NCBI GenBank assembly: GCA_900547225.1
Contig: URFW01000003.1
Location: 13,054 to 77,053 of the forward strand
Length of the DNA stretch: 64,000 bases
DNA from: an uncultured Mycoplasmatota bacterium
GTDB lineage: Bacteria; Bacillota_I; Bacilli_A; RF39; UBA660
Direction: 5' to 3'
Shown one piece after another: positions 2,554 to 58,244 of this stretch. Position 1 is the stretch's first letter. The number at the start of each line of letters is the position of its first letter. The notes under the pieces are model-generated. The model was not told the DNA's origin, searched no databases, and saw nothing but the letters and a program-made list of their open reading frames with translations. Both the position numbers and the translations under genes were made by a program.

Positions 2554-3645
2554 TTAGAATTCTTTTTTGCTTCTTAAAATAAGCTTCTTATTGTTTAGTA
2601 ATCTTTTGTTATTAGGTTCCATCTTTATTGCTATATCAACCCATTTTAAGGATTCATCTATTTCTCCTAAGTAAAACGTACTTATAGAAAGTAAGTCATA
2701 TATTGTGTAATCAAAACTAAAGGGTTCATTTATGTATGTTTTTTCATGAGTCTTAATATCTAGTGCCAAAAGGCAATATTTTTTAACAGCACTAAAGTTA
2801 TTAAGCTCATACTCTAAAAATGCCATTTCAACATATGCATCTCTTAAATAAGGAGCTTCATTAATTGCCTTATTAAGCCACATTTTAGCTTCTTCATATC
2901 TTTTTAAATATTTGTAGCATCTTGCTATAAAACGCATAGAAGCTGCTCTTTCATCTTTCCATGTTGCAGACTTTAGTGAAAGATGATAAATAAGTGTATC
3001 TATTGCTTCATTTAATTTTCCATAATACATATATTCTCTTCCTAAATAATGAACGTTTCTATCATTATAAGGATCTTCTTTTACAGATAATTCTAATAAA
3101 GGAAGATAACTACTTCTTGATTTAGAACTATCTGGATAATGATCAACTATTATGTCATTTGTAGTAGCCCAAACTTCATTGCTTCCAGTATATTTTAAAA
3201 CTTCATGAACCGGATTTATCCATTTAAAATTTTTTCTCGCATGTATTTTCTCATAGTAAAAACTTACCTTAGGGTTCTTATTTTCATCATGACTCCAGTT
3301 ATAAATATATCTTACGTGATTTACTTTTTCATTTTCTAATATTTCTTCTAGTTTTTCTCTCCAATTAGGACTTATTACTTCATCAATATCTATACATACA
3401 CATATATCAGCATCGAGTGGTACTAACTTTAAAGATTCATTTCTTGCAACATCAAACCTCCAAGGTTTTATTTCTTTAGTAGTTACTTTAGCTCCTAATT
3501 CTTTTAATATTTTAACAGTATTATCAGTTGAACCAGTATCTAAAACGTATATGCCGTCAGCACTCTTAACTGACTCATACCATCTTTTAGCAAATTTTTC
3601 TTCATTTTTACTTATGGCATAAACATATATTTTTTTCTTTTTCAT
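2554..3645 (-). CDS. family 2 glycosyltransferase with C-terminal TPR repeats
   Basis: N-terminal GT-A signature (VLDTGSTDNT ... DADICVCIDIDEV, a DxD-like motif) and C-terminal TPR-like Y/A/L-rich helices (KSATWKDERAASMRFIARCYKYLKRYEEAKMWLNKAINEAP...). This is the architecture of SunS-type and spore-surface glycosyltransferases. Confidence 0.8.
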   Translation of the reverse strand: MKKKKIYVYAISKNEEKFAKRWYESVKSADGIYVLDTGSTDNTVKILKELGAKVTTKEIKPWRFDVARNESLKLVPLDADICVCIDIDEVISPNWREKLEEILENEKVNHVRYIYNWSHDENKNPKVSFYYEKIHARKNFKWINPVHEVLKYTGSNEVWATTNDIIVDHYPDSSKSRSSYLPLLELSVKEDPYNDRNVHYLGREYMYYGKLNEAIDTLIYHLSLKSATWKDERAASMRFIARCYKYLKRYEEAKMWLNKAINEAPYLRDAYVEMAFLEYELNNFSAVKKYCLLALDIKTHEKTYINEPFSFDYTIYDLLSISTFYLGEIDESLKWVDIAIKMEPNNKRLLNNKKLILRSKKEF

Positions 3646-3661
3646 AAAAATATCCTTTCTT

Positions 3662-4414
3662 TTATTTTCCTAAATATTCTATGATTAATGTTAAACTAGA
3701 GTTTGTAAAGTAAGAATCAGAATCAATGTTTTGTAAATCTGGTGTATTAAGGTAAATATTTCTTTTTGACAAATTAGATAGTTCATATAAGTCATTAGTA
3801 CTATCTATAGATAAAATTCCTTCGGCGTGAATATGTGAGGTCTCTTCATTTCTATAGAAGCTACTAGCGCCCACATAAATATTATCAGTTCCAACCTTTC
3901 TAAATGCAAGAGTTGCAAAATCTATCTTTGGATCAAATTTTTCGTTAAAATATGGAACTCTTACGTATGCATTAAAAGATATTTTATAATATCCTTCTTT
4001 ATTAAACTTAATGGTATTATTATTAGAATCTAACTCTACTATGTTATTTGTATCAATTTCTTTTCTTTGAAGAGGAAGTCTTTCTCCTTTTAATATTTCA
4101 TATCCATCATCTGGATAATCTTTGTTAAAAGCAACTATGTATGCAGCATTTATTTTATTTGGAATGTTTTCACCATCTAATCCATCTTTTCCTTTTGGAA
4201 TCATAAAGGTTAAAATATGGTTATCATTAACTTTATTATCAATTACTTTTGCACTAGTATTAGAATCTACTGTTATTGTATCTTTAATTGTAATTGTTTC
4301 TGATTTAGCTAGAACGTATCTTGGCCTATTTAATTTATTTTTATTAATTTCGTTAATAGCATTATTTAATATGTTGCTACCACAATTACTTTTTTTTATA
4401 AAATTTTCATTCAT
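3662..4414 (-). CDS. collagen-like motif protein with C1q/BclA-C-like C-terminal domain (putative spore-surface protein)
   Basis: Single short GXY stretch IPKGKDGLDGEN, homologous to the FKIPKGDKGD modules of the divergent neighbour. The C-terminal roughly 130 aa have a jelly-roll pattern (GYYKISFNAYV...). It is divergently arranged with 4593-5729. Confidence 0.6.
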   Translation of the reverse strand: MNENFIKKSNCGSNILNNAINEINKNKLNRPRYVLAKSETITIKDTITVDSNTSAKVIDNKVNDNHILTFMIPKGKDGLDGENIPNKINAAYIVAFNKDYPDDGYEILKGERLPLQRKEIDTNNIVELDSNNNTIKFNKEGYYKISFNAYVRVPYFNEKFDPKIDFATLAFRKVGTDNIYVGASSFYRNEETSHIHAEGILSIDSTNDLYELSNLSKRNIYLNTPDLQNIDSDSYFTNSSLTLIIEYLGK

Positions 4415-4592
4415 ATTAATTATCTCCTTTCTTTAATATATTATTAGTTAACAAAAAAAGTAATAATTTTATATTCCTATATATTGCTTTAATTTAAATA
4501 TAATAGTTTTTTTGTTATAAATTAATTACACTTATACTTAAATAATTAATAAGCTATAATGATTAATTTAAAAAGATAAGGAGGATAATAAT

Positions 4593-5729
4593 ATGTATAA
4601 ATGTAATGATGATTATGAAAACATAAAAAGAAAAATAGAAGAGGAAAGAAAAAAATACAAATTTTGTTATATTAAAGGTCCGACAGGGCCAAAAGGGGAT
4701 AAGGGTGATATTGGACCTAAAGGAGAAAGGGGTCTTCCAGGTCCTACTAGTATTGATGTTGGAATAACAAAAACAGTAGAACCTTACGAACTTGCCAAAG
4801 TAGAAAATGTTGGAACAAAAAAAGATGCTATTTTAAACTTTAAAATACCAAAAGGGGATAAAGGAGATACAGGTCCTAAAGGAGAAAAAGGACTTACCGG
4901 TCCAAAAGGAGATAAAGGTGATACAGGTCCAAAAGGAGATATGGGAGAAAAAGGAGAAAGAGGAGAGCAAGGACCTTCTACTATACAAATTGGAAATATA
5001 AAAACAATAGAACCAGATGATAAAGCAGAAGTTATTAATGTTGGAACACCAGTAGATGTAGTTTTAGATTTTAAGATACCAAAAGGAGATAAGGGTGATA
5101 TGGGTCCTAGGGGACTTCCTGGTGAAATTGGAAGAACAGAACATATTGCAATAGATGAAACAGAAACGTTAGAACCTGGAGAAGATGCAACTGTTATGGA
5201 TACATTTGAAAATTGGGTACATCATCTTTCTTTTTCAATTCCAAAAGGCCAAAAAGGTGATACGGGTCCTAAAGGAGATATAGGTCCAGCAGGCCCGCCA
5301 GGAAAAGATTTTACATCTTCATATGGAATAAGATATTCTAATACAGAAACACAAATAAATTTACCTCAAGCTGTTGATACAGCACTTCCACTACCTGAAA
5401 AAGGAGCAGCATTGTTTACCGAATACATAAATGATAATTCAATTAAAATAAAAGAAAATGGTGTTTATTTAATATCATTTTCACTGTGTGGTGCAACAAA
5501 TGAAGATTGCTCTTTAACTACTTCTGTAAGGGCGAACGGGTTATTACAACCTGCTACTAATATTACTAGTGAATTTCAAGCTCAAATAATTAATTGCATG
5601 AGTGGTTCTACCATTGTATCTCTTAATCAAGATGACCTTATTACGTTAAATATAAAACCATCTATGACTGTTAATATGATATTTAATGGAAGTACAAGTG
5701 CAATGTTAAGTGTTGCAAAAATACATTAA
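4593..5729 (+). CDS. collagen-like triple-helix repeat protein with three internal beta-modules and a C1q/BclA-C-like C-terminal domain
   Basis: GXY runs (GPTGPKGDKGDIGPKGERGLPGP; GDKGDTGPKGEKGLTGPKGDKGDTGPKGDMGEKGERGEQGP; GDKGDMGPRGLPGE; GQKGDTGPKGDIGPAGPPGK). These are interrupted three times by an approximately 38-aa module that ends in ...FKIPKG(D/Q)KGD. The C-terminal domain is GVYLISFSL...ITLNIKP. Strong RBS AAGGAGGATAATAAT-ATG. Confidence 0.75.
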   Translation: MYKCNDDYENIKRKIEEERKKYKFCYIKGPTGPKGDKGDIGPKGERGLPGPTSIDVGITKTVEPYELAKVENVGTKKDAILNFKIPKGDKGDTGPKGEKGLTGPKGDKGDTGPKGDMGEKGERGEQGPSTIQIGNIKTIEPDDKAEVINVGTPVDVVLDFKIPKGDKGDMGPRGLPGEIGRTEHIAIDETETLEPGEDATVMDTFENWVHHLSFSIPKGQKGDTGPKGDIGPAGPPGKDFTSSYGIRYSNTETQINLPQAVDTALPLPEKGAALFTEYINDNSIKIKENGVYLISFSLCGATNEDCSLTTSVRANGLLQPATNITSEFQAQIINCMSGSTIVSLNQDDLITLNIKPSMTVNMIFNGSTSAMLSVAKIH

Positions 5730-5817
5730 GAGTAGATTAATTCTATTCTTTTTTTATGCAAATTAATTATTTTAAAATTCATTTAAAACATAACTTATAA
5801 AGAAGGAGGAAGATAAA

Positions 5818-7674
5818 ATGCAAATTATAGATGATAATACGGTTGTAGTTTATAGTAGCAACGAACTAAAACAGGCTTTAAGTGAAGCAAATAATTATAA
5901 TTATGTTTATTTAGGAAATGATATTAGTCTTGAAAGCGGTTTTACAATAAATGCTAATAAAATAAACATAACAATAGATGGAACTTATAATAATGTTAAG
6001 TATACTTATACTAATTATTTAACTAATGATTCGGATGTTATAAACGTTAGTACCTCAAACAAAAAAATCACTTTAAAAAATATGAATATAATAAGTTCAC
6101 ATACTTATGGAGTAGTTTATGTTCCATCTCATCCAAACTATTCTAACTTAACTGTTTTTTATAAAAACGTTAATTTTAATGGTGTAGAGCTTTCATGCAA
6201 TTATTATGGAATAACTAAGATTGTTGACTCAAATATAACAGGTGAAGATACAAATTCAGTTACCGTAAGAAAAATATGTGATTCTAATAGAATTATAATG
6301 GGGGGAAATACAACAATTACAAGTAGTTCAAATACTAATACTATTTTCTTTTTTAATGATGTTATTCCATCTTATATTAAAATAGTACCTAATAGTAATG
6401 TTAATATTACAACAAATAGGGAACTTATGAATGGTACTAATAGACTTGATTTAATAGTAGGGCATGGCTCAACTTTTCTATTAACTACTGGAAATGGGTT
6501 TGCAATAACAACAACACATGGTGCTAGAAACGTTTTAATAGAAGAGATGGCTAATTTTACCTTTATAGAAAAAAGCCATCAAAGAGTTCCAATGTGGAAT
6601 GTATTTGGGGATTTTAAGGTTTTAGAAGGTGCTAGTGTATCAGTTATAAATACGTATATGAATACACCAACAGATAATTATAATATTTATTTTAAAGGAA
6701 CAAATCAAAAGTTTATATTAGATAATCCAAAATACGTAAATATTTATACTAAAAATGCAAATGTAGTTTATACGAATAATCCGGTTGAGTTTTCATTTAA
6801 ATTTAGCAGGATAAACATGTGGATATATGCTCTTGATTATAATTTGGCATGTACACTTGATGATGCGCCAGCTTTTTCTTGGTTTAAAGAAAATACGCCT
6901 TCAAAAATAACAGGTACATTAAATAAAGATAATACGGTTATTTCATCTCATAATTTTACGGATAGTGAGTTAGCTCTATTACCAGATATAAGTAATTTCT
7001 CATTTCAAAGTAAAAAAATATTAACGATAGGAATGCTAAAGATGAACGTTCATCCACTTACTGCTACTACAAATGCTATATCAGGTCATACAATACCTTA
7101 TTCTAATGTAAAAATAGAGTATGATAATAAGAGTTTAACGCTAGAAGCAGATGAAAATGGTTTATTTGAAACTAATATTAATGATAATATTTTAGATAAT
7201 ACAAGAGTTAAAATAACTGCTTGTTTAAATGCTTGTTTTTCAGAAAAAAAGGTAATAACTCCTTTTAATGGTGAATTAACACTTCTAAACGTAACAGATA
7301 ATATTCCTTTTAGTATGATGCCATCATCTATAAATCCCGTTGTTTTACCTAAAAAAAATAAAACAGTAATAACTGTAGTTGATAGTAGAGTAAATAGTAC
7401 TAGTTGGAAACTTTATATAAATTATATAAATCCTATGATTGAAAAGGAAGGAAAAGTATTAATAGATTCACTGTTATTTAAAAAGTTTGATAATGAAAAA
7501 ATTAATATAAATGCAAATAAAAAAATGATATATCAATCAAATGATAACGGTGGAAATATTTCAGTAAGTAATGTTACTTTTTCTACTGATAAAGGATTGC
7601 TTTTAAAACCTAGTAAAAGTTTGTTAGAAGATGAAGATTATTCTACTTTAATAATTTGGAGTATAGAGGAGTAA
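5818..7674 (+). CDS. large Asn/Thr/Ser-rich secreted or surface protein, predicted parallel beta-helix N-terminal region plus Ig-like C-terminal domains
   Basis: 618-aa ORF with RBS GAAGGAGGAAGATAAA-ATG. Repetitive N-x-(I/V)-x-(N/G) strands (NINITIDGTYNN, NMNIISSHTYGVVYV, NVNFNGVEL, NVNITTNREL, GHGSTFLLTTGNGFAITTT). No recognisable catalytic motif. Confidence 0.55.
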   Translation: MQIIDDNTVVVYSSNELKQALSEANNYNYVYLGNDISLESGFTINANKINITIDGTYNNVKYTYTNYLTNDSDVINVSTSNKKITLKNMNIISSHTYGVVYVPSHPNYSNLTVFYKNVNFNGVELSCNYYGITKIVDSNITGEDTNSVTVRKICDSNRIIMGGNTTITSSSNTNTIFFFNDVIPSYIKIVPNSNVNITTNRELMNGTNRLDLIVGHGSTFLLTTGNGFAITTTHGARNVLIEEMANFTFIEKSHQRVPMWNVFGDFKVLEGASVSVINTYMNTPTDNYNIYFKGTNQKFILDNPKYVNIYTKNANVVYTNNPVEFSFKFSRINMWIYALDYNLACTLDDAPAFSWFKENTPSKITGTLNKDNTVISSHNFTDSELALLPDISNFSFQSKKILTIGMLKMNVHPLTATTNAISGHTIPYSNVKIEYDNKSLTLEADENGLFETNINDNILDNTRVKITACLNACFSEKKVITPFNGELTLLNVTDNIPFSMMPSSINPVVLPKKNKTVITVVDSRVNSTSWKLYINYINPMIEKEGKVLIDSLLFKKFDNEKININANKKMIYQSNDNGGNISVSNVTFSTDKGLLLKPSKSLLEDEDYSTLIIWSIEE

Positions 7675-7728
7675 TGCCTTTACAGAAAGGTATAATTATT
7701 CATAAAATATACCGTGATGAGGTGAATT

Positions 7729-8088
7729 ATGGCAAAAGAATATATTTATGTTAAACTTTATAATAATAATGGTCTAAGTTCAAATAATGTAAGAGTTAAA
7801 TTAAAGAATAAATGTAATAAGATTGTTTTTGATGGAAAAACAAATTATTTTGGAAAGATAAAAATACCAGTATGTAATAATAAAGTATATAAATTAATTG
7901 TCTATTATAATTTAACAAAAAAAGTAATACCTTTAATTGCAAGAGCAAATGAGGTTTATTGTATAAATATTGGTAGTAATAAAAATAAAAAACATCTTAT
8001 TGCAATTTTATTAAAGGATAAGAATTATCCAAATATAAGAATAGAAGGAGGCATGATGACATTATGTCAAGACACACAATCCCTATAA
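7729..8088 (+). CDS. hypothetical small protein
   Basis: 119-aa ORF with RBS GATGAGGTGAATT-ATG. Lys/Asn-rich with no motif. Its 3' end overlaps the next gene by 25 nt. Confidence 0.4.
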   Translation: MAKEYIYVKLYNNNGLSSNNVRVKLKNKCNKIVFDGKTNYFGKIKIPVCNNKVYKLIVYYNLTKKVIPLIARANEVYCINIGSNKNKKHLIAILLKDKNYPNIRIEGGMMTLCQDTQSL

Positions 8089-8609
8089 CGAATGGCAAAG
8101 GAAGTATTGAACTTGTTACTGGAACTTATAATGCACAAGCAGTAGCAGGAGGGTATGACGCTTCAACGTTAGATCCTAAAAGCGTTACCATAATAGATGG
8201 AACTGATACATATGCTTTTACAATAAGTGCAAAAGGTACGTTAACACTTCACGTAACGGATACGGGAGAAGCTAGTACGGGAGTACAAATTGTTGGTGCA
8301 AAGTTCATAAGAACAGATAGTACTGGAACAATAGTAGGAAAAGAAATAACAACTAATGATGATGGTAATGCGGTATTTGAAAATGTTCCGTATGCACAAA
8401 CTGGAAGTAATACAATTTATTATAAACAAATATCTGGAGATGGTGGACATACATTTGATGATACAGTAAAATCAATTACAATGACACAAGAAAATGAAAC
8501 AGTTGAAATTAAAAACCCAGATGCACCAATTAGAAACTTTACTTTAATGGATGCAAGTTTTCCAAACATCCCAGTTATAGATGGGCAAATAATACTTGAT
8601 GATAATTAA
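8064..8609 (+). CDS. Cna-B / prealbumin-fold-like domain protein
   Basis: RBS AGGAGG upstream of ATG 8064. Motif G-AKF-x-R-x-D-x-G...T-x-DDG-x-A-x-F-x-N-V-P-x-(A/G) (VGAKFIRTDSTGTIVGKEITTNDDGNAVFENVPYA) is characteristic of Cna-B/SpaA-type transthyretin-like domains. Confidence 0.5.
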   Translation: MSRHTIPITNGKGSIELVTGTYNAQAVAGGYDASTLDPKSVTIIDGTDTYAFTISAKGTLTLHVTDTGEASTGVQIVGAKFIRTDSTGTIVGKEITTNDDGNAVFENVPYAQTGSNTIYYKQISGDGGHTFDDTVKSITMTQENETVEIKNPDAPIRNFTLMDASFPNIPVIDGQIILDDN

Positions 8610-8933: not shown

Positions 8934-9587
8934 TTAATCAGCAGAACTGTAATTTAAAGTAATATTACCAAATGCAACGTTAAAGTCACCATCTGCTCTA
9001 TTTGTACCAGCTTCATATTCTAGAGTAATAACTACTGCTTCGCCATTTTCTTTAGCTAAGGTATGACCAGTTATAGAAGCTTTGCCAGTTGATGTTTCAA
9101 GTTCATTTCCAACTTTTACTTTAACAGAAATCTTTTCACAAGCTTTTTGAACTAATTCATCACTTGTTCCAGCAGATGCAGTACAAACTTTAGTAGCGTT
9201 TTGTCCAGTTATGTTTTCAAATACTATACTTTTTAAGAATGCATTTAACTCACCAGCATTATAAGCATAAAATTTATACACAGCTGTTTGTCCAGGTTCG
9301 GTAAAAGTTGCACTTAAATTTGAAATGGTTGGATCGTTACTATTATCAATTATACCGTTTGTTGCAACAAGGCTGTTTGGTGTAACAACTGGAGTAATTT
9401 CAGTAACTTCAGCTTTTGATTCAGCACTAGAGAAAATAACGTTCATAGTACTATTATCTGGTTTTACATTTGCACTAGATTGAATGTTTAAAACATTAGA
9501 AAATGATGCAAAATCAATAGATAAACCAATAACTCCAACGATTAAAGCAACTATTGCTATTACCTTTGCCTTTTTATTTCTTTCCAT
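8934..9587 (-). CDS. divergent TasA/camelysin-like secreted protein (paralog of the 35.8-39.4 kb family)
   Basis: N-terminal K-rich segment plus hydrophobic helix ending in ...DFASFSN, comparable to the AxFSD SipW-cognate motif. The body and C-terminus align with the other paralogs (EPGQTAVYKFYAYNAGELNAFLKS versus YPGAYVTIPVTITNKGSVSAKLKN, and ITLEYEAG versus ITLEYEQAK). Confidence 0.55.
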   Translation of the reverse strand: MERNKKAKVIAIVALIVGVIGLSIDFASFSNVLNIQSSANVKPDNSTMNVIFSSAESKAEVTEITPVVTPNSLVATNGIIDNSNDPTISNLSATFTEPGQTAVYKFYAYNAGELNAFLKSIVFENITGQNATKVCTASAGTSDELVQKACEKISVKVKVGNELETSTGKASITGHTLAKENGEAVVITLEYEAGTNRADGDFNVAFGNITLNYSSAD

Positions 9588-11821: not shown

Positions 11822-12532
11822 TTATGCTAATTTTACTATGTTTAAATAAGCACTTGTTCCACTTGTTGGAGTTACTGTTGCGTTAGTGCTAGATTCAAGT
11901 GCTAGAGCTATTTCATCACCATTTTGAAGTGTTACAATAATACTTCCTTGAAGTGATTCATCACTATTAGCAGTTACTTCTTTTGTTATTGTAGAACCTG
12001 CTATTTGTGTTGTATTTTTTGTTACGTCAAGTGTTAATGTTGCAGCTGCATTAGATGAGCCTTGGAATAGATAATCTATTTTATAAGTACCATCAGATGT
12101 TATTGTTAATGTATTAGCATTATTACCTGTTATGTTTTTTAATACTCCTGTTGTTGTAAGAGGTACTACAGTTTGTGTACTTGCTGTTAAGTTTATGGTG
12201 TTTTCAGTTGCATCATATTTACTTGCAAATGCATCAAGTGCATTTGATGCAGCAGGCCCAGTAGGACCAGTAGGCCCAGTAGGTCCGGTTTCACCTTGTG
12301 CACCAGTATTACCTGTTAAACCTTGAATGCCCTGAGGTCCAACAGGCCCAGTAGGTCCAGTAGGCCCAGTAGGTCCGGTAGGTCCAGTTGCTCCAGTAGG
12401 TCCAGCGGGACCTCCTGCAGGCCCAGTAGGCCCCGTTGGCCCTGGAATGTATCTTGGACAGCAACATTTGTTTTTTTTCATTTCTAATAAGGCAGCATTT
12501 AAAATATTACCTTCATAACATTCATTATTCAT
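11822..12532 (-). CDS. BclA-like collagen-like exosporium glycoprotein (GPT-repeat) with C1q/TNF-like C-terminal domain
   Basis: N-terminal CCCPRY followed by (GPT)n/GXY for about 70 aa ([63 protein letters not shown]). A Thr/Ser-rich 140-aa C-terminal domain follows. Possible sigma-K-type -10 CATATTATA about 25 nt upstream of the RBS, on the minus strand at 12555-12563. Confidence 0.8.
12250..12455 (-). repeat. in-frame 9-bp periodic GGN-CCN-ACN tandem repeat encoding the GPT collagen-like region
   Basis: Runs of ccagtaggcccagtaggtccggt... are visible directly. This kind of tract typically varies in length between strains. Confidence 0.7.
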
Positions 12533-27969: not shown

Positions 27970-28269
27970 TTGCAATACGGAACGTATAAGGGTATTGATT
28001 ATTATTACACGGATGATGTTAATTCAAAGTATGAAATAACTATTAAAATTAAAAGTGATAACACTTATGAGATTTTATCAAGTAACTCTAATGCTATAAC
28101 AAACTCTAACGGCAAAATAGAAATAATTAATAATACTTTTGGAGGAAGTAATAATAAGGCTATTAGATTAGGTGATAAATCATTTATCGTAGATAGTAAT
28201 AATACAATTACTTTTTCAGCAGGTAGTGGCTCATCATTGTTTTTCCTTCTTTTTTTTATAATTAGATAG
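27970..28269 (+). CDS. hypothetical small protein with C-terminal hydrophobic tail
   Basis: 99-aa ORF 11 nt after the previous stop. Confidence 0.35.
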   Translation: MQYGTYKGIDYYYTDDVNSKYEITIKIKSDNTYEILSSNSNAITNSNGKIEIINNTFGGSNNKAIRLGDKSFIVDSNNTITFSAGSGSSLFFLLFFIIR

Positions 28270-28559
28270 GCATTATATCATTATTATTAACATTATAAAT
28301 TAACGTTTACAAGAGTCTGAAAATAGTCATTTTTTTAAACTTTCCTTTTTTGCTTGTAATTCTACAATTCAAAAAACTTTTCTCATTATGATGTTCAGAT
28401 TACAAGCATTTATCAAAAAATAATTAACATAATAAAAAAGCTCGGAATATCCGAACGTCTTTATTTTTATAAAAGTTTTTCTGTCATATTGTATTTGAAA
28501 AGTCAACTGTTATTTGTTGAAAATTATGATTTTTTCTTATTATGTTGTCTTTACTTTAT

Positions 28560-29099
28560 CTATTTTATTTCTTTAATATTATTTAAAATTCCATTATAAT
28601 AATAGTCTTCTTGTTTGAAAATAAAAAGTGGCGTAGTATCATTATTTATAAAAATCAGATAAACAAAATCTCCTTTTTCAACCTTTCTAAAAAAATCTGA
28701 ATAAACAGGAAAATCTTTATTATATACTTTAGAATATTCTTTTAATGTTAGATAATGTTCTTTATCTGGATATTCATTGTCTTTGCTTAATGTTACCTCA
28801 ATGTTAGTTATTTGATCTAAAACTACTTTATAATTCCTATTTCTTATTTTTTTTATAATTTGCTTTTTTTTATTCAATTTAATCAAAGGTAATAAATTAA
28901 ACATTAAAGAAAATAAAATACAGAATATAAAATCACAGATTAAATTAAAAGTACTTAATTTATTAATATATATAAACGGTGATAATACTATTATTATTGA
29001 TGCTATAACAAAGATTACTGTAAAAATAACATCTGTTTTATATCCTGTTTCACTTTCCAATAATTTTTCGTTAATTTCTATTTTTTCTTTTTCTCTCAT
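28560..29099 (-). CDS. hypothetical membrane protein (2 TM N-terminal), second gene of a two-gene operon
   Basis: Follows 29107-29730 after an 8-nt gap. No motif. Confidence 0.45.
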   Translation of the reverse strand: MREKEKIEINEKLLESETGYKTDVIFTVIFVIASIIIVLSPFIYINKLSTFNLICDFIFCILFSLMFNLLPLIKLNKKKQIIKKIRNRNYKVVLDQITNIEVTLSKDNEYPDKEHYLTLKEYSKVYNKDFPVYSDFFRKVEKGDFVYLIFINNDTTPLFIFKQEDYYYNGILNNIKEIK

Positions 29100-29106
29100 A
29101 TTTACC

Positions 29107-29730
29107 TCACTTTATTTCATTAATCCAATTAGGATTATATTTCAAATTTAATTCTTTATTAGTAGTTTTATTATAATACTTAGTAACAGATTCTTTAACT
29201 TCAACACCTGGTTTAAAACCAGCATTAATATACATATAACAAGCAATTATAATTGATATTAAAGAATAATTATCATTTTTTACATATATCTTATAATTAT
29301 GTAAATCGTTATATATAATTTGCTCTGTATCTATTTGAGCTACTTGAATATCATTCATATAAATTGGACATTTAGATTCAGTTCCTAATCCAATACCATA
29401 TTCTTTATAAATCTCATTATTGTAAATTAATTCGGTATATTCATAATTACCAAATAAACCGGTTTTTTTATTTGTTTGGTATATTTCTCCAACGTTCTTT
29501 TCAGATACAATTATTTGATATGGTCTGAACTTTTTATTTTTTGTTTTTGTAAATAAACCACCCGTATATTTTAATTCAAATGGTATATTATTAAAATTAC
29601 CAATTAAAGAAGATTCCATTGAAGCTAACTTTCCTTTAACGTTAATTGAACCTAATATATTACCATTAGAAATTATTTCAAAATCTGCTTCATACATTTC
29701 TTTATTTTTTTGTCTTATATCTATCATCAT
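29107..29730 (-). CDS. hypothetical protein with C-terminal TM
   Basis: 207-aa ORF with RBS GGAGGTTATAATTT-ATG. No motif. Confidence 0.45.
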   Translation of the reverse strand: MMIDIRQKNKEMYEADFEIISNGNILGSINVKGKLASMESSLIGNFNNIPFELKYTGGLFTKTKNKKFRPYQIIVSEKNVGEIYQTNKKTGLFGNYEYTELIYNNEIYKEYGIGLGTESKCPIYMNDIQVAQIDTEQIIYNDLHNYKIYVKNDNYSLISIIIACYMYINAGFKPGVEVKESVTKYYNKTTNKELNLKYNPNWINEIK

Positions 29731-29936
29731 AAATTATAACCTCCAATTTTTAAATTTTAATCCATCATCCGATAACATAAAATCTGTAAATACTGAAAAA
29801 CTATCTTTTTTTATTTTACACTCATTTTTATTCTCCTAATATAATTTTATTATACATTATAAATAGGATGTAAATCAATTTAAAAATATATGTTAAAGTT
29901 AATTCCTTTGTTATATAATATTAATAGGAGAATGTT

Positions 29937-31043
29937 ATGGAAAAGATATTTGATTATGTTAATAAATATGGAAATTATGATTTTGATGAAAAAGTACTTG
30001 GTGAACTTGATATGCTTATATTTTCTCATCTTTCTTACCTTGACTTATCAAACTTTAAGGATGGATTAATCTATGATATAGGATCAAGTTTAAAAAATTA
30101 TGATGCAAATAATTTAGGCGATTCAGTAAAGACAGCCTATAAGTTGTTATCCTTAATATATGATAAAAAAAGATATAAAAACATAACCATGTTTAACTAT
30201 AAATACATATTAACAGATGATGTTCAAGTTGGCATATTATCTTTAAGACTTTTAAATAATGATATTATAATAAGTTTTGAAGGAACTGATAACACATTTA
30301 TAGGTTGGAAGGAAGACTTTGCACTATCTTATGAATATCCAACTAAGTCACATCTAATCGCAAGCAAATACGTAAGTGATACATTAAATAAAAATAATTG
30401 TAACATTTATTTATGTGGACATTCTAAAGGCGGGAATTTAGCATTGGTATCAGCACTTAGACTTCTTCCGTCTAAAAAGGGTAAGGTAAAGAAAATATAT
30501 TCATTTGATGGACCAGGGATCCCAGATGACATATTTAAATCCATGGATTACAATATGATTAAAGATAGACTTATTAACATAATACCTAATTATAGCATAG
30601 TTGGAGTTTTATTAAATCAGGAAAACTTAAATGTAATAAAAAGTGATGCAATAGGAATTATGCAACATGAAATATCAAGTTGGAAAGTAGAAGATGACCA
30701 CTTACTAAGATGTGAAGAATCTAGCTTGAGCAAGGAACTTGATGTTTCAATAAAAGTTTGGCTTATAAAAACAACTCGTGAAGAGCGAAGACAAATAATT
30801 GATGAAGTATTTGATATCTTTGTTAAGTCTGGTATAAAAACAACTGATGATATAAAAGAAAATAAGATAAAATCTGTAAACATGCTTTTAAAAAATTTAA
30901 ATGGTTTTTCAAAGGAAACAAGAACTTTATTTAATAATTATATGAAGATGTTAATTGGTGAAATGGGTACGAATATAATAAATGATAAAAAGAAAGTTAT
31001 TAAAGAAAAAATAAGTGAGTTAAAAGATAAATACGATACTTAA
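29937..31043 (+). CDS. alpha/beta-hydrolase, lipase class 3-like (Mbeg1/DUF2974-type)
   Basis: Nucleophile elbow LCGHSKGGNLA (G-H-S-x-G). Promoter has an extended -10 TGTTATATAAT. Confidence 0.6.
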   Translation: MEKIFDYVNKYGNYDFDEKVLGELDMLIFSHLSYLDLSNFKDGLIYDIGSSLKNYDANNLGDSVKTAYKLLSLIYDKKRYKNITMFNYKYILTDDVQVGILSLRLLNNDIIISFEGTDNTFIGWKEDFALSYEYPTKSHLIASKYVSDTLNKNNCNIYLCGHSKGGNLALVSALRLLPSKKGKVKKIYSFDGPGIPDDIFKSMDYNMIKDRLINIIPNYSIVGVLLNQENLNVIKSDAIGIMQHEISSWKVEDDHLLRCEESSLSKELDVSIKVWLIKTTREERRQIIDEVFDIFVKSGIKTTDDIKENKIKSVNMLLKNLNGFSKETRTLFNNYMKMLIGEMGTNIINDKKKVIKEKISELKDKYDT

Positions 31044-36981: not shown

Positions 36982-37587
36982 ATGGAAACACATTCAAAAA
37001 ATAAAAAAAGTTTAAAAATTATTAGTGTTATAGTTGCAATATTGGTGTGTTTAATGAGTGTTGGTTACGCCTTTTTTAGTGATTCTTTATCTATTAATGG
37101 AGTTGCATCAACCGTTGATTACTATAGTGGTACAATGCTTCCAACAAACCCTATTATGTTAAAACCTGAAGATAATTTATATAGTACCTATGATACGTCT
37201 AGAAGTAAACTTTCTTTAAGGGAAGAACACTGGGTTGGAGACACTTTTATAGTAATTTGGAACAAGGGAGTAGGTATTTCAATATCAAGAAAGACAATTA
37301 CTTATACAATTTCATTTTCTAATCCAACTGAACTTCCATATACGAATGGACAAGTTACTACTAAAATAGAAAATAATGGTTTAGGTTATATAAAAAGTGC
37401 AACAGGATCACTTTCTAAAACTACATTACAGCCCGGTGAGGCAGTAGAAGTTAAACTAACTATTACATCTAATTTTTTATCAAGACTAGATGATCAAGAT
37501 ATAACTGCTACAATTTCATATGAACTTCAAGGGGAGACAAAGTATTTTTACTTTGTAGTTAAGTATCGCGGTTGGGATAATGATTAG
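36982..37587 (+). CDS. TasA/camelysin-like secreted protein (paralog 3, divergent body)
   Basis: …VGYAFFSDSL signal. The body is more divergent and Thr/Ser-rich. Confidence 0.6.
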   Translation: METHSKNKKSLKIISVIVAILVCLMSVGYAFFSDSLSINGVASTVDYYSGTMLPTNPIMLKPEDNLYSTYDTSRSKLSLREEHWVGDTFIVIWNKGVGISISRKTITYTISFSNPTELPYTNGQVTTKIENNGLGYIKSATGSLSKTTLQPGEAVEVKLTITSNFLSRLDDQDITATISYELQGETKYFYFVVKYRGWDND

Positions 37588-37615
37588 TATATTTAGGAAT
37601 AAGGGTGGTGAAAGA

Positions 37616-38812
37616 GTGAAAAGAAGATTAAAAATAATTTTATTGTCGATATTAATTTTAATATCGGCAGCACTTGAGTTTGCGGGCTTATCAGCTCATT
37701 TTGGATCTTCTTATTCTTATGTTATAAAACCAATTATTTGGGTGTTTATTGGCATAATAACGTATTTTTTCTTTAATGACGATGTTATTCCAAATCTAAA
37801 GCATAAAAAAGAAGTAGAGTTTTATACAATAGTAACAACACTTATATACTTTGTAATATATTTTGGTTTAGGTTATATAAAAGGTTTTGCACATAATCCA
37901 TATGACTACACGCTAAAGGGAGTATTAAATAATTTATGGGTGTTTGTTCCTGTTGTAATTGTAAAAGAATACGTAAGATATTACATGATTAATAATACTG
38001 GTACAAAAAATATATTATTACATGCATTATTAATTTCTATTTTACTTACTATGATAGATTTAAATATATACAAGCTTAACTCTTATTTTTCAACGTCACT
38101 AAGTGTTTTTGAATTTATAATTCAAAACTTTATCCCGAAATTGATAACAAATTTATATTTAACATACATATCATACTATGCTGGATATAAAACTACAATT
38201 ATTTATGCTTTCATACCACAATTTTTGTTGTATGTTTTACCAATACTTCCAGATTTGGATATGGCAACAATGTCTATTCTAAATTCATCTATTCCATTTT
38301 TCTCTTATGTTTATATAAATTATATTATAAATAAGCTAGAGAAAACGTTGGATAGGAAAAGAAATAAAGTGGTGGGTATAAAAGGATATGTATTAATGAT
38401 TTTATTTGTTATCATCATGATTTTATTTGGGCTTGGTATATTTAGTGTTCAACCGCTTGTTATTGCAAGTAATAGCATGTTACCTAGCATAAGAAAGGGA
38501 GATATTGTAATAATAACAAATAAGAACACCAAAAAAATAAAAAAAGGAGAAATAATAAGATATAGGATTGATAATTATTATGTTGTCCATAGAGTTGTTT
38601 TAATAAAAAAAGATGAAAGAGGAAACAGAACGTTTATAACTAAGGGAGATAACAATAGCAACATTGATCTTTTTGCGGTAAAAGAATCTCAAGTAGATGG
38701 GGTTGTTAAAGTGGATATTCCTTATTTAGGTTACCCGACTTTATTGTTTAATAAACTACTAAATACTGGAGTAGATAAAAGGGTTATAATTGATAAAGGA
38801 AGAATAAATTAA
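37616..38812 (+). CDS. sipW: SipW-type (archaeal/ER-type) signal peptidase I fused to a ~260-aa polytopic N-terminal membrane domain
   Basis: The C-terminal roughly 130 aa carry the SPase boxes (IASNSMLPSIRKGD with the catalytic Ser in SM-x-P, YYVVHRVV with His, and TKGDNN). The N-terminal about 260 aa are highly hydrophobic with at least 7 predicted TM helices and no recognisable motif. Start set to GTG 37616, which is 5 nt after AAGGGTGGTG; the six-frame ORF begins at 37580. Confidence 0.75.
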   Translation: MKRRLKIILLSILILISAALEFAGLSAHFGSSYSYVIKPIIWVFIGIITYFFFNDDVIPNLKHKKEVEFYTIVTTLIYFVIYFGLGYIKGFAHNPYDYTLKGVLNNLWVFVPVVIVKEYVRYYMINNTGTKNILLHALLISILLTMIDLNIYKLNSYFSTSLSVFEFIIQNFIPKLITNLYLTYISYYAGYKTTIIYAFIPQFLLYVLPILPDLDMATMSILNSSIPFFSYVYINYIINKLEKTLDRKRNKVVGIKGYVLMILFVIIMILFGLGIFSVQPLVIASNSMLPSIRKGDIVIITNKNTKKIKKGEIIRYRIDNYYVVHRVVLIKKDERGNRTFITKGDNNSNIDLFAVKESQVDGVVKVDIPYLGYPTLLFNKLLNTGVDKRVIIDKGRIN

Positions 38813-38920
38813 TTGTAAAATAATGACAAATAATATCATAAATAAACATAGTTTGTCTGATATCATTGAAGTTTATATTAATTGTTGTTATAATTTTTTA
38901 ATAGGAGCATATGAAAATAT

Positions 38921-39415
38921 ATGAAAAAACAAAATCTGTTAATTATATTGATTATTTTTTCTTTGCTTGTTATACTTATTGGATATTCGGTTTTTAAAAT
39001 GAGTGCTAATATAAGGAATGTAATGACATCTAATAGTGATATAAACGTAGAGTTTAAAAGCATCGGAAAAATATATGAAAGTGGAAGTGTTGGTGCTGAT
39101 GCAGTTATATCAAAAGATAGAAAAATAATTTTTATAAACATTCCTAAATTAACTTATCAAGGAGCTTACGTAATTATACCAATAATGGTAGAAAACGTTG
39201 GTACAACACCTGTAAGATTAAGTTCTATTTATGAATATGATACAAAAGATAGTGACACAATAAAGGTGTACTATGATGGTATTGCAATAACTGATAAGGT
39301 TTTAAATCCAGGTGATGTTGAGGAATTTAGAGTCAAAGTGATATGGGAAAATAAACAGGATAATAAACCAATTAAAATGAATTTTTACTTAAAATTAAAT
39401 TACGTTCAAGAATAG
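38921..39415 (+). CDS. TasA/camelysin-like secreted protein (paralog 4)
   Basis: …IGYSVFKMSAN degenerate signal. The body aligns with the other paralogs (KLTYQGAYVIIPIMVENVGTTPVRLSSI). Confidence 0.6.
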   Translation: MKKQNLLIILIIFSLLVILIGYSVFKMSANIRNVMTSNSDINVEFKSIGKIYESGSVGADAVISKDRKIIFINIPKLTYQGAYVIIPIMVENVGTTPVRLSSIYEYDTKDSDTIKVYYDGIAITDKVLNPGDVEEFRVKVIWENKQDNKPIKMNFYLKLNYVQE

Positions 39416-39427
39416 GAGGTATATGAC

Positions 39428-40522
39428 ATGAAAAAGCAGAGACTTCATGGTAAAACTATAAAAAAAATCGTTGTATCTATTTTATTAGTTTTTGCTTTGG
39501 TTGTACAGTTTGCTTTTTTAAGCTATTTATTTAAGGCAATATCTCCAAATAATGATAAAAGTAATGTAATTATGGATTATACATCAAGTGGAAATTTAGA
39601 TTATAAGGTATATTTGAAGCAAAATGATTTTATTGATAGTACTTATCTGAACGCTGGTGAAGCTTATGTTTTGGATTTGATTGATCACATAAAAATAATT
39701 TCACTTTATGATTTTAAATCAACAAATAAGACAAGCGTGACAGGAACTAATAAACTAATTTCAAAATTAAAAGTATATTATAAAGAATCAACCGACAAAA
39801 GTAGTAATCCTGAAGTTATGACTAAGGAAAAAACATTAGATGAAAAAGTAATGAGTTTTAATGACAATAAGTTTATTTCTTCGGGTGAATATGATTTATA
39901 CTTGGATGAATATATAAATATAATTAAGGAATTTCAAAATAAAGTTAAGATAGCAGTAGATGGATATTTAGAAGTATCTGAAGTAAATAGCTTTTCTGGC
40001 AAAGTAGGTGGTGCATCTTATGGGGATACATATTCTAATACAATAAAGATACCTTTATCATCTTCGGTTGTTAAAATAGAAAGTGATGCATCAAATCCAA
40101 AAACAAAATCCGTATACGAAAGTGACCTAGTTAAAACTAATAAAATAGTTTTGAACTATATCGTAATAGCAAACATAGTTACTTTCATAATAATTTGTTT
40201 CTTACTTAGAAAGTTATTTACGTTTACTAATAAAACTGAGTATGAAAGAGAACTTAATAAGATACTTAAGAATTATGATGATATAATTGTAAATACTAGA
40301 ACAATGGTTGATGTATCTGATTATAAGTTAATCAAAATAGAGGATTTTAAAGAAATTCTTAATTTATCTAGGGAACTTTTATTACCAATTATGAATTATG
40401 AAATAGAAAAAGGAAAGGCAACGTGTTTTTATGTTATTAAAGATGATATACTATACACTCACTTAATTTATGATAAAAATGCGGAAGAATATAAAAATAA
40501 AATATATAAAGAGGGCTATTAG
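39428..40522 (+). CDS. two-TM accessory membrane protein of the TasA/SipW cluster (TapA-like role is speculative)
   Basis: N-terminal signal-anchor, roughly 200-aa extracytoplasmic domain, a second TM (IVLNYIVIANIVTFIIICFLL), and a 100-aa cytoplasmic tail. It starts 10 nt after paralog 4. Confidence 0.5.
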   Translation: MKKQRLHGKTIKKIVVSILLVFALVVQFAFLSYLFKAISPNNDKSNVIMDYTSSGNLDYKVYLKQNDFIDSTYLNAGEAYVLDLIDHIKIISLYDFKSTNKTSVTGTNKLISKLKVYYKESTDKSSNPEVMTKEKTLDEKVMSFNDNKFISSGEYDLYLDEYINIIKEFQNKVKIAVDGYLEVSEVNSFSGKVGGASYGDTYSNTIKIPLSSSVVKIESDASNPKTKSVYESDLVKTNKIVLNYIVIANIVTFIIICFLLRKLFTFTNKTEYERELNKILKNYDDIIVNTRTMVDVSDYKLIKIEDFKEILNLSRELLLPIMNYEIEKGKATCFYVIKDDILYTHLIYDKNAEEYKNKIYKEGY

Positions 40523-53856: not shown

Positions 53857-55763
<1,907 letters not shown>

Positions 55764-55904
55764 ATATCTTTAACTTCCTATAAAATTCAATATAATATTT
55801 TGTTTGCTTTTTCATGTAGTACCTCACTTTCTAATAAAAGACTAGATACTGCTTCCTTTATTGGTTTTATATTGTATCATTTATTTTTAGTTTGTCAAAC
55901 CATA

Positions 55905-56174
55905 TTAGTTCATTTTTAAGTATTGTTCTAAATCTTTAAACTTAATTTTGTTATTATAACCGTTTATAAAGACATTTTCACTATCTTCAAATATTAAGTA
56001 GTCATTGCCTTTAACTTTCAAAATATGGGGTTTTACATAGGCTATATTAGTATTTTTAAGATTTATAATATATCCATTAGTAAAGGAATATTCCACATAA
56101 GCAAACTTACATATCATTTCAATCTTTCTTTTTAATTCTTCACTTATTACAAGTTTTTTAGTTTCTATTGTCAT
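55905..56174 (-). CDS. hypothetical small protein between recombinase and tRNAs
   Basis: 89-aa ORF with no motif. Confidence 0.4.
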   Translation of the reverse strand: MTIETKKLVISEELKRKIEMICKFAYVEYSFTNGYIINLKNTNIAYVKPHILKVKGNDYLIFEDSENVFINGYNNKIKFKDLEQYLKMN

Positions 56175-56270
56175 AACTCATCACTTTCCTTTCTTAAATA
56201 ACAAAAAAACTAACTATTTCTAGTTAGCATTTATTACTTAAACTCGAAAAGTTCGAGTTTCCTATCAATC

Positions 56271-56345
56271 TGGAGCAAGTGAGGAGAATCGAACTCCCGT
56301 CTCAGCCTTGGCAAGGCCGCGTACTAGCCGTTGTACTACACCTGC
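56271..56345 (-). tRNA. tRNA-Gly (anticodon GCC)
   Basis: Reverse-complement folds as acceptor GCAGGTG/CACTTGC, D-arm GTAC-AACGGCTA-GTAC, anticodon stem CGGCC/GGCTG with loop TTGCCAA, T-arm GGGAG-TTCGATT-CTCCT, and 3' TCCA. Confidence 0.85.
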
Positions 56346-56353
56346 AAATAAAT

Positions 56354-56428
56354 TGGAGGGGCCAGCCGGATTTGAACCGGCGATCGTGGAGTTGCAGTCC
56401 AATGCCTTACCAGCTTGGCTATAGCCCC
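56354..56428 (-). tRNA. tRNA-Cys (anticodon GCA)
   Basis: Reverse-complement: acceptor GGGGCTA/TGGCCCC, anticodon loop CTGCAAC, T-arm GCCGG-TTCAAAT-CCGGC, and 3' TCCA. Confidence 0.8.
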
Positions 56429-56588
56429 ATTTCTTTTCGTGCAACCAAATTATAACATATAATACCAGTAAATAGCAATAGTAATTTTTTATATTTTATG
56501 CAAAAAAATATAACAAGTTGCTATTTTTTCTAATAAAAAATTCATATTTTGTAAATAATATTACTAATAATGAGCCTATATAATCAAT

Positions 56589-56606
56589 TTAACCTTGCAA
56601 GGTTAA
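56589..56606. promoter_or_regulatory. perfect 18-bp palindrome TTAACCTTGCAAGGTTAA upstream of the first small HTH gene (candidate operator that includes a -35-like TTGCAA)
   Basis: Read directly from the sequence. A near-identical copy lies at 56951-56968. Confidence 0.6.
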
Positions 56607-56652
56607 TAGTTTTTGGCCTATTAAAGATAAAATTGTAATAGGTGGTACAATT

Positions 56653-56907
56653 ATGAAAAAAAGAAAGGTAATAGAAGCTATTGCAGAGAAAATTAATAAT
56701 ATAGTAAATGAAAGTAACGGAAAACTTACGGTAAATAAGATAGCATCTAAAAGTTGTCTTACCCAAAGTACTGTTCAACATATAATGGATAAAAGTTACA
56801 AGGATGTTAAACTATTAACCATTGTAAGATTATGTGATGGATTGGGACTTACTTTAAAAGAATTTTTCTCTGATGAACTTTTTGATAATATAGATAGAGA
56901 TGACTAA
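56653..56907 (+). CDS. small HTH DNA-binding protein
   Basis: 84-aa ORF with RBS AGGTGGTACAATT-ATG. Central LTVNKIASKSCLTQSTVQHI HTH-like segment. Confidence 0.55.
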   Translation: MKKRKVIEAIAEKINNIVNESNGKLTVNKIASKSCLTQSTVQHIMDKSYKDVKLLTIVRLCDGLGLTLKEFFSDELFDNIDRDD

Positions 56908-56950
56908 GTTAAAAGACTTAGTTTTTTTTTATTAGAAGAATATGATATAA

Positions 56951-56968
56951 TTAACCTTGTAAGGTTAA
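56951..56968. promoter_or_regulatory. second copy of the palindromic operator (TTAACCTTGTAAGGTTAA, 17/18 symmetric) upstream of the second HTH gene
   Basis: Read directly from the sequence. Confidence 0.6.
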
Positions 56969-56985
56969 CTTTTTGGAGGTAAGTT

Positions 56986-57207
56986 ATGTCAACAGAGTTT
57001 AAACTATATAACGTAAATGACGAAGATTTATATAGAAATAAGTCACCAAAGGAAAAATTTGAGATACGAAAACAAATGATTGTTATGGCAAAAGAAAGGG
57101 GAATTAAACCAACAGCTAGATATTTTAATACTTATCCTGCAACTGTTAGGAGAATAATTAGGTTATATAATGAAAAGGGAGAAGAAGGACTTATTACTAA
57201 AAGATAG
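56986..57207 (+). CDS. small HTH protein resembling the N-terminal HTH of IS630/Tc1-type transposases
   Basis: AKERGIKPTARYFNTYPATVRRIIRLYNEKGEEGL has the same pattern as transposase orfA HTH domains (…G-x-S…A…F-x-V-S…V-x-RW-x-x-RY-x-E-x-G…GL). RBS GGAGGTAAGTT-ATG. No transposase catalytic ORF follows. Confidence 0.55.
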   Translation: MSTEFKLYNVNDEDLYRNKSPKEKFEIRKQMIVMAKERGIKPTARYFNTYPATVRRIIRLYNEKGEEGLITKR

Positions 57208-57304
57208 TAAGTTTTTTTATTTGACATTCATTTTAAAAATGTGTAACTAAATATTTGAAAAATTCATAATAAATAATATAATAATATTATAGGAGATGAA
57301 ACTT

Positions 57305-58207: not shown

Positions 58208-58244
58208 GACATTTTTTAATGTCTTTTTAAATATACTTAATTAG

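Follow-up and report, generated by a model that had tools for sequence, protein, structure and literature searches.

We analyzed a stretch of 64,000 nucleotides (nt) from an uncultured Mycoplasmatota bacterium of the order RF39 (GenBank assembly GCA_900547225.1, contig URFW01000003.1, positions 13,054 to 77,053), hereafter called the window, with a G+C content of about 26%. The subject of the analysis is a group of four genes on the forward strand, COL, B618, s119 and s181, which encode a collagen-like protein, a large protein with a beta-solenoid and two small proteins, together with the glycosyltransferase (GT) and BclA-family genes that surround them (Table 1). An initial annotation, made from the letters alone, had proposed that a glycosyltransferase, two divergent collagen-like genes, a beta-helix protein and a Cna-B protein form a cassette for a glycosylated spore surface. 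All six open reading frames (ORFs) that it named exist at the positions it gave. Its gene list overlooked s119 and a third BclA-type gene located further downstream.

Table 1. Genes and regulatory features of the locus, in window coordinates.
Feature	Position	Strand	Description
GT	2554-3645	-	Glycosyltransferase, GT2 (GT-A) with C-terminal tetratricopeptide repeats (TPR), 363 amino acids (aa); Pfam Glycos_transf_2 E=1.1e-11, over cutoff
O2	3662-4414	-	BclA-family relative, 250 aa; N-terminal motif, one beta-module, weak BclA_C-like C-terminus
GT promoter	3675-3702	-	Strict sigma-K-type AC-N17-CATAGAATA, inside the 3' end of O2; conserved in related loci L001 and L002
O2 promoter-like motif	4434-4461	-	Variant AC-N17-AATATATTA; first -10 position A, not C
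P1 (COL promoter)	4530-4556	+	Window variant AC-N16-AATAAGCTA
COL	4593-5729	+	Collagen-like protein, 378 aa; Pfam Collagen E=1.1e-15
Terminator-like hairpin	5730-5755	+	Intrinsic-terminator-like hairpin and T-run directly after COL; compensatory changes in 4 of 8 pairs, 18 loci
Conserved box	5761-5771	+	AATTAATTAT, upstream of the P2 -10 box
P2 -10 box	5789-5797	+	CATAACTTA, 29 nt before the B618 start
B618	5818-7674	+	618 aa; N-terminal pectate-lyase-like beta-solenoid, Ig-like middle, C-terminal WxL-type domain
P3	7682-7709	+	Strict sigma-K-type AC-N17-CATAAAATA, in the 54-nt gap before s119
s119	7729-8088	+	Cys-containing orphan, 119 aa; 3' end overlaps s181
s181	8064-8609	+	All-beta, possibly prealbumin/SpaA-like, 181 aa; most conserved operon member, about 77-88% identity between species
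Third BclA-type gene	11822-12532	-	236 aa; BclA_C 3.9e-13, 49.8 bits, over cutoff
GerA-family germinant-receptor operon	58708-62444	-	Complete; Pfam GerA 1.6e-137 for GerAA

More than 1000 close relatives of B618 were found in gut metagenomes, and 70 B618 loci with identities of 69-97% were found among the GTDB species representatives. These loci are labelled as uncultured Bacilli, Tenericutes or Mollicutes, Clostridium sp. CAG:417, Clostridium sp. CAG:433 and Acholeplasma sp. CAG:878. The order RF39 includes the GTDB family CAG-433 and the genus CAG-878 (PMC8035907), and the B618 loci cover at least two RF39 families. Two of the operon contigs (L002 and L056, 74-79% identity) were deposited under metagenome-assembled genomes of Paratractidigestivibacter sp., an actinobacterial genus, and of Muribaculaceae (Bacteroidota); they are most likely mis-binned RF39.

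Comparison of all ORFs showed that COL, B618, s119 and s181 are the only genes shared across the 70 loci, always in this order and on one strand. All four occur in order in 54 of the 63 loci with enough flanking sequence, and in six more the COL slot is filled by a different, GPT-rich BclA-type gene. A BclA-family gene precedes B618 in nearly all of the 63 complete loci. The flanks consist of unrelated housekeeping genes (SecA, PrfB, Lgt, TrxB, murI, FMN reductase and others) that vary by species. The cassette as originally outlined, with the glycosyltransferase included, did not hold up in this comparison: the conserved unit is COL-B618-s119-s181, GT is adjacent to it in only 5 of the 70 loci, and O2 also lies outside it, with O2-like genes near the operon in about 20 loci. 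For the same genome pairs the median identity is 82% for B618 and 88% for s181, compared with 71% for SecA and 61% for PrfB. Judged from these alignments, B618 and s181 appear to be under strong purifying selection. Conservation above that of SecA and PrfB is unusual for surface proteins, and unlike that of phage receptor-binding proteins.

The largest protein of the unit, B618, is rich in Asn (13.6%) and Thr (9.7%), and its residues 1-330 form a beta-solenoid in the AlphaFold2 model, in agreement with the initial description of an Asn/Thr-rich beta-helix-like protein. The best structural match of the solenoid is the serine-rich repeat protein (SRRP) adhesin of Limosilactobacillus reuteri (PDB 5nxk/5ny0, Foldseek E=3.4e-4), with 15-16% identity and a target-length-normalised TM-score of 0.5-0.57. 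Unlike B618, the SRRP is secreted by SecA2/Y2 and anchored by LPXTG, and it is a different protein overall. B618 also carries two W-x-L motifs, W530-K-L and W614-S-I. An exhaustive phmmer search yielded 405 clusters of B618 relatives. Distant full-length relatives carry Pectate_lyase_5 (the 'pectate-lyase-like adhesive domain'), Big_6 and a C-terminal WxL domain in Pfam. The Pfam WxL model gave no match to B618 itself at E<=0.1, whereas the relative P0283 does match it (4e-7).

The presence of a signal peptide was counted on the 97 full-length clusters among the best 150 B618 matches. A signal peptide and linker are found in 40 of the 97, and 38 of these 40 end in the canonical WxL sequence '...W.L.DAP' ('xAP'). 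Like B618, the remaining 57 have no signal peptide and begin with the solenoid itself, and the canonical ending is missing in 52 of them. The profiles of the two groups can be aligned over 612 columns, as far as the C-terminal end (hhalign probability 100%, E=9e-132). The B618 ORF begins at the first strand of the beta-solenoid, which is column 88 of the profile with signal peptide; there is no upstream start, and the N-terminal Kyte-Doolittle value over 12 residues is 0.62. Because the 612-column alignment reaches the last residues, B618 can be described, from its sequence, as an end-to-end signal-peptide-less homolog of the secreted large WxL adhesins, without the canonical xAP ending.

In many species (e.g. 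at the related loci L003, L006 and L010) the ATG position of B618 reads ATT (..GGTGATAATTATTCAA..). Gene callers then start B618 at a GTG located 9 nt upstream, almost inside the Shine-Dalgarno sequence, which results in a form of 621 aa.

Described WxL clusters consist of proteins with signal peptides, among them a small WxL protein and a DUF916 protein (PMC9772566). Compared with the large WxL proteins of Lactobacillales and Bacillales (Lwp/CscC), B618 has no signal peptide, no small WxL or WxL-interacting protein (WxLIP) partner and no xAP ending; it is accompanied instead by a BclA-like collagen protein and two orphan beta proteins, and its promoter appears to be a sporulation-type one. 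Next to B618, whose neighbours are COL, s119 and s181, neither a small WxL protein nor a DUF916/DUF3324 (WxLIP) protein was found, and there were no Pfam matches in s119 and s181. We also considered s119 and s181 themselves as WxL-interacting proteins, and rejected this on an hhalign probability below 0.1% to the WxLIP domains. We found no literature that links WxL proteins to spores.

The signal-peptide-less subfamily of B618 occurs in genomes of widely different base composition. Distant members are found on three contigs of 42-52% G+C (L073-L075), as tandem paralog pairs in L073 and L074. All three contigs also carry a divergent small DUF11-domain protein of 127-138 aa, and in L073 the motif AC-N17-CATACAATA lies 32 nt before the start of the B618 relative. 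A metagenomic relative of 1100 aa, P0387, contains WxLIP_PGBD, WxLIP_HBD and a transmembrane helix in one ORF with a B618-like large WxL protein. This ORF may be a true fusion, or else an assembly or frameshift error may have merged two adjacent genes of a canonical WxL cluster.

COL contains 35 GXY triplets in four runs, which are split by three beta-modules of about 40 aa. Its Cys-containing N-terminus reads MYKCNDDYENIKRKIEEERKKYKFCYIK and, on inspection of the sequence, is without a Pro-rich exosporium-targeting motif; such an N-terminal motif is specific to Bacillus. The C-terminal BclA_C/C1q-like head matches over the whole domain (E=3.7e-8), with 33.7 bits under the Pfam cutoff of 38. 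O2 has only three GXY triplets (GKDGLDGEN) and a BclA_C match of E=0.003 and 17.8 bits. It has a 44-aa beta-module in common with COL (E=3e-6) and the N-terminal motif NILNxAxxExxKNK..PRY in common with the third BclA-type gene (E=5e-5). O2 is thus predicted to be a BclA-family relative that is essentially collagen-less. Of the initial claim of two collagen-like genes with BclA_C domains, the collagen-like region is borne out for COL, whose BclA_C score is under the cutoff, and not for O2.

COL resembles the exosporium nap proteins BclA and BclB of the Bacillus cereus group, and BclA1-3 of Clostridioides difficile, in its GXY region followed by a probable BclA_C (C1q/TNF-like) head and in having no signal peptide, and, as in those organisms, several paralogs are present per genome. 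COL differs from them in three respects: its collagen region is broken into four runs by the beta-modules, which are also found in phage fibres; its BclA_C score is under the Pfam cutoff; and its gene is a constant part of an operon whose three other members are not BclA proteins. Compared with Bacillus BclA, COL also has a charged, Cys-containing N-terminus in place of the Bacillus targeting motif.

The two small genes overlap by 25 nt (8064-8088) in different frames, in the window and in all related loci. Here the conserved C-terminus of s119 (..LWQDIQSQ) is dual-coded with the invariant N-terminus of s181 (M.RHTIPIT), which implies translational coupling of the pair. A SpaA/prealbumin match is seen in 18 of 18 s181 orthologs, with a best E-value of 0.0012 and all under the Pfam cutoff of 23.1 bits. 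The AlphaFold2 model of s181 is all-beta (predicted local distance difference test, pLDDT, 65.6), and Foldseek returned no significant structural neighbour for it. For the Cna-B fold that had been assigned to this gene, these consistent sub-threshold matches are the only signal. Per-ortholog Pfam scans of s119 gave no family. None of the seven proteins of the locus (GT, O2, COL, B618, s119, s181 and the product of the third BclA-type gene) has a hydrophobic N-terminus or a transmembrane segment, with a maximum Kyte-Doolittle value over 19 residues of at most 1.32. This agrees with the earlier statement that classical signal peptides are missing.

Phylogenetic footprinting of the conserved core resolved three transcription units, each with a conserved CATANNNTA -10 box and two with AC at -35. 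In most related loci P1 reads TATACA-N15-CATAAATTA. Its information content is highest at ACA and TCATAAAtTA while the spacer varies, also when very diverged loci are included. The strict pattern AC-N16/17-CATANNNTA is present upstream of COL in 32 of 67 loci, against a background of 0.067 per 700 nt. The CATANNNTA box of P2 lies at a fixed distance of 28-30 nt before the B618 start in 60 of 67 loci. Across loci P3 has the form CCTTTACA-N16/17-CATAAAATA, again with a variable spacer between conserved boxes, and is strict in 39 of 62. At the third BclA-type gene, the -10 box CATATTATA is close to the ribosome-binding site. In the related loci, 70% of BclA-family genes have CATANNNTA in the 150 nt ahead of them, compared with 11% of other genes. 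In the whole window the strict sigma-K pattern has 8 matches with 4.1 expected, which is not significant alone. A simple sigma-70/terminator scan found zero terminators and fewer promoter-like sites than shuffled sequences, and such a scan is uninformative in AT-rich DNA; the weak AU-rich terminator after COL, which it missed, was later backed by covariation.

The spoVIF gene of RF39, which served as a positive control, has AC-N16-CATATAATA. The bclA promoter of B. thuringiensis, CAC-N16-CATATGTTA, is sigK-dependent by experiment (PMC4750369), and the motif upstream of COL has the same form as this proven promoter. In C. difficile, bclA1-3 are under sigK control, and the sigma-E and sigma-K promoters have the same -10 and differ at -35 (ATA and AC, respectively; PMC3789822). 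By their sequence, P1 and P3 appear to be of the sigma-K form. In related loci the 5' untranslated region of COL contains an inverted repeat, AGAATT..AATTCT, just downstream of P1, which is lost in the window and its closest relatives. A stem-loop in this region had been seen by eye and was discarded, as RNAalifold gave no consensus structure.

For RF39, spore formation and a cell wall, the latter in most members, have been predicted from gene content (PMC10868615). The window contains a complete germinant-receptor operon in the order GerAA-GerAC-GerAB (482, 402 and 368 aa), and spoVIF was found in the related locus L038 (1.3e-22). Because of the GerA operon, the RF39 prediction and spoVIF, the host looks like an endospore former. 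An NCBIfam scan of the window genes between 14 and 53 kb did not find hallmark sporulation genes. Upstream of gerAA there is a sigma-G-like sequence, GAATT-N17-AATACTA, which was spotted by eye only.

The GT2 domain and TPR tail that had been assigned to GT are both present, the latter with a TPR_2 score of 27.1 bits against a cutoff of 27. The DxD motif is 'DID' (within 'IDIDE'). GT matches phrog_13126 over its full length at 7e-106 and, in the PDB, the GT2 part of Listeria GmaR at 8e-7. The SgtA protein of C. difficile, of 358 aa with a GT-A domain and four TPRs, is encoded beside bclA3 and adds beta-O-GlcNAc to Thr of the BclA3 collagen repeats (PMC7157674). The window GT and SgtA share a GT-A/GT2 domain followed by C-terminal TPRs at a similar size, a likeness of architecture. 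As in sgtA-bclA3, a BclA-family gene is immediately adjacent, and a GPT-rich BclA is encoded near the window GT. In contrast to sgtA, GT sits downstream of the nearly collagen-less O2 and is found in few related loci. In all five of them it lies directly downstream of a BclA-family gene, which is GPT-rich in L039 and L069. GT is accessory and stands outside the conserved operon. Since the GPT-rich collagen region of the third BclA-type gene contains 14 Thr in 21 triplets, and few Thr are found in the collagen repeats of COL, the product of this third gene is most likely the substrate of GT.

From the observed domain and homology relations, synteny, conservation, cis-motifs and absent export signals we infer a model whose timing, location, glycosylation and adhesion, like every step past motifs and domains, are proposals. 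We consider it somewhat probable that the operon encodes a mother-cell-made spore-surface nap and adhesin, with an SgtA-like glycosyltransferase as an accessory. The units P1-COL-terminator, P2-B618 and P3-s119/s181 would be transcribed in the mother cell late in sporulation by RNA polymerase with a sigma-K-type, possibly sigma-E-type, factor, and the terminator after COL together with separate promoters would permit differing amounts of the products. The proteins would assemble onto the forespore from the mother-cell cytoplasm, and a signal peptide would then be unneeded. COL trimers could form a BclA-like filament with a C1q-like head, giving a hairy nap, while B618 would display a pectate-lyase-like beta-solenoid adhesin. 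B618 itself may have descended from secreted large WxL adhesins and have acquired a new destination when the signal peptide was lost and the C-terminal end changed. The translationally coupled s119/s181 pair may serve as anchor or adaptor, and the conserved Cys of s119, the COL N-terminus and B618 could cross-link. Where present, the SgtA-like GT would probably attach O-glycans to Thr of collagen repeats rich in GPT, chiefly in the product of the third BclA-type gene. The spore-surface idea of the initial annotation is thus supported by the GerA operon, the RF39 spore prediction, the sigma-K-type boxes, the absence of signal peptides and the SgtA-like GT, while the outline of its cassette is not.

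Several observations weigh against a spore-surface role. The presumed ligand of WxL domains is peptidoglycan, and this is unexposed on the spore surface. The sigma assignment comes from sequence only, and a reading of P1 and P3 as moderate sigma-A promoters (TATACA/TTTACA, 17-18 nt, TAAATT/TAAAAT) is equally open. P2 is without AC at -35, and the window P1 and the O2 promoter carry A for the conserved C at the first -10 position, while P3 and the GT promoter are strict. No sigK was seen within the 64 kb of the window. In other Firmicutes, the distant signal-peptide-less relatives of B618 (L073-L075) have no adjoining collagen gene, and a clear promoter motif is found in one of the three. In addition, the C-terminal half of B618 is poorly modelled and unreliable (AlphaFold2, mean pLDDT 59), and s119 and s181 are without informative homologs. 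Finally, GT is absent from most loci and glycosylation of the core proteins is therefore not implied.

Some of these points would fit a vegetative cell-surface complex, in which the proteins leave the cell by non-classical export (sibling lysis, or a holin-like or dedicated exporter) and act as ordinary WxL or collagen-like adhesins. In its favour, the homology of B618 to cell-wall WxL adhesins extends over the full length, peptidoglycan can be bound by WxL domains from the outside (PMC9772566), a wall is predicted for most RF39 (PMC10868615), and P1 and P3 allow a sigma-A reading. This explanation has to account for four proteins that all lack a signal peptide and transmembrane segment, while every described WxL cluster protein has a signal peptide (PMC9772566), and for the missing small WxL or DUF916 partner. 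Moreover, the family members that have lost the signal peptide are largely those that have also lost the canonical C-terminal end, and the conserved C-A ahead of the -10 TA has no role in sigma-A recognition. We therefore regard a vegetative complex as improbable.

A second alternative keeps the sporulation link and treats B618 as an enzyme with the pectate-lyase fold (a polysaccharide lyase or a hydrolase), produced in the mother cell, that remodels or lyses the mother-cell envelope or processes spore polysaccharide. Right-handed beta-helices are common to lyases and depolymerases, a mother-cell-type promoter is compatible with this role, and, once the membrane has broken down, the WxL-type domain could bind the peptidoglycan of the mother cell from inside. 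On the other hand, the closest family, Pectate_lyase_5, is annotated as adhesive and non-catalytic, the best structural match is the SRRP adhesin, and the tight linkage to the gene of a BclA-type fibre suggests a structural assembly. A catalytic motif was not found in B618, though no in-depth search was made. An enzymatic role seems to us slightly less probable still than the vegetative complex. A domesticated or resident phage receptor-binding module, e.g. a tailocin or prophage remnant with a collagen-like tail fibre, a beta-helix tailspike and small adaptors, would account for the matches of COL to many PHROG tail-fibre families (phrog_5073 at 2.6e-26, and others) and to the phage 80alpha fibre gp68 in the PDB, for the weakly tailspike-like solenoid of B618 and for the presence of the GT family in jumbo phages, but it is very unlikely and was rejected as the principal explanation, given the species-variable housekeeping flanks, the lack of B618 relatives in IMG/VR and of significant matches in the BFVD structural search, the origin of the PHROG matches in collagen repeats and a C1q-like head that are common to BclA proteins, and a conservation above that of SecA.

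Returning to the spore-surface nap and adhesin, a broader form of this proposal is that B618 represents a previously undescribed class of spore-surface adhesins: members of the large WxL lineage that have lost the signal peptide and the canonical end, came under mother-cell sigma control and are displayed on endospores. In RF39 they would be locked into an operon with a BclA-like fibre and two orphan anchors. We put this class forward tentatively, as a possibility that falls short of being probable. Given the wide range of base composition among the genomes with the signal-peptide-less subfamily, such 'spore WxL adhesins' could, if the proposal is true, be a general means by which gut Firmicutes attach their spores, one that has so far been overlooked. 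The idea of a glycoprotein cassette was already known; the conserved RF39 operon, its promoter architecture and the pairing of a signal-peptide-less WxL-type adhesin with a BclA-like fibre are new.

Few uncultured bacterial orders are as prevalent in the guts of humans and animals as RF39, whose sporulation has so far been a prediction from gene content only; the four-gene unit gives concrete targets. The operon proteins are candidate antigens for detecting, enriching and sorting RF39 spores from stool, and the operon promoters offer a handle on sporulation regulation in a reduced-genome lineage. The relationship of B618 to the WxL adhesins also suggests a route by which a cell-wall adhesin family could be re-used on spores, and bears on how non-pathogenic gut spores attach to mucus, dietary fibre and new hosts during transmission.

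Other parts of the window deserve brief mention. A large serine recombinase of 624 aa (Resolvase, Recombinase and Zn ribbon domains) is encoded in the region 53877-57207 beside two small helix-turn-helix ORFs. It is adjoined by genes for tRNA-Gly and tRNA-Cys at 56271-56428 on the reverse strand, the GC skew flips at 54-56 kb, and the region resembles the edge of an integrated element. A split sigK near the recombinase (53.9-55.8 kb) was considered and none was found; the recombinase adjoins the tRNA genes like that of an ordinary integrated element. Beside the GerA operon, an inosine-uridine nucleoside hydrolase and a Cu/Zn superoxide dismutase are adjacent to each other at 57296-58700 on the forward strand. 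The B. thuringiensis inosine hydrolase gene iunH is a sigK-controlled exosporium gene (PMC4750369); a clear CATANNNTA motif was not found upstream of the window pair. The G+C minimum of the window (0.21), with inverted skew, lies at 28001-30000, where the reverse-strand ORFs 28560-29099 and 29107-29730 have no NCBIfam match. The region 37580-40522 encodes a protein of 410 aa that ends in a SipW/archaeal-type signal peptidase I domain and is followed by a 164-aa ORF and a DUF5305 protein. Just downstream of the conserved unit, on the opposite strand, an ORF of 217 aa (8934-9587) has a hydrophobic N-terminus and no family, and could be a SipW-type substrate.

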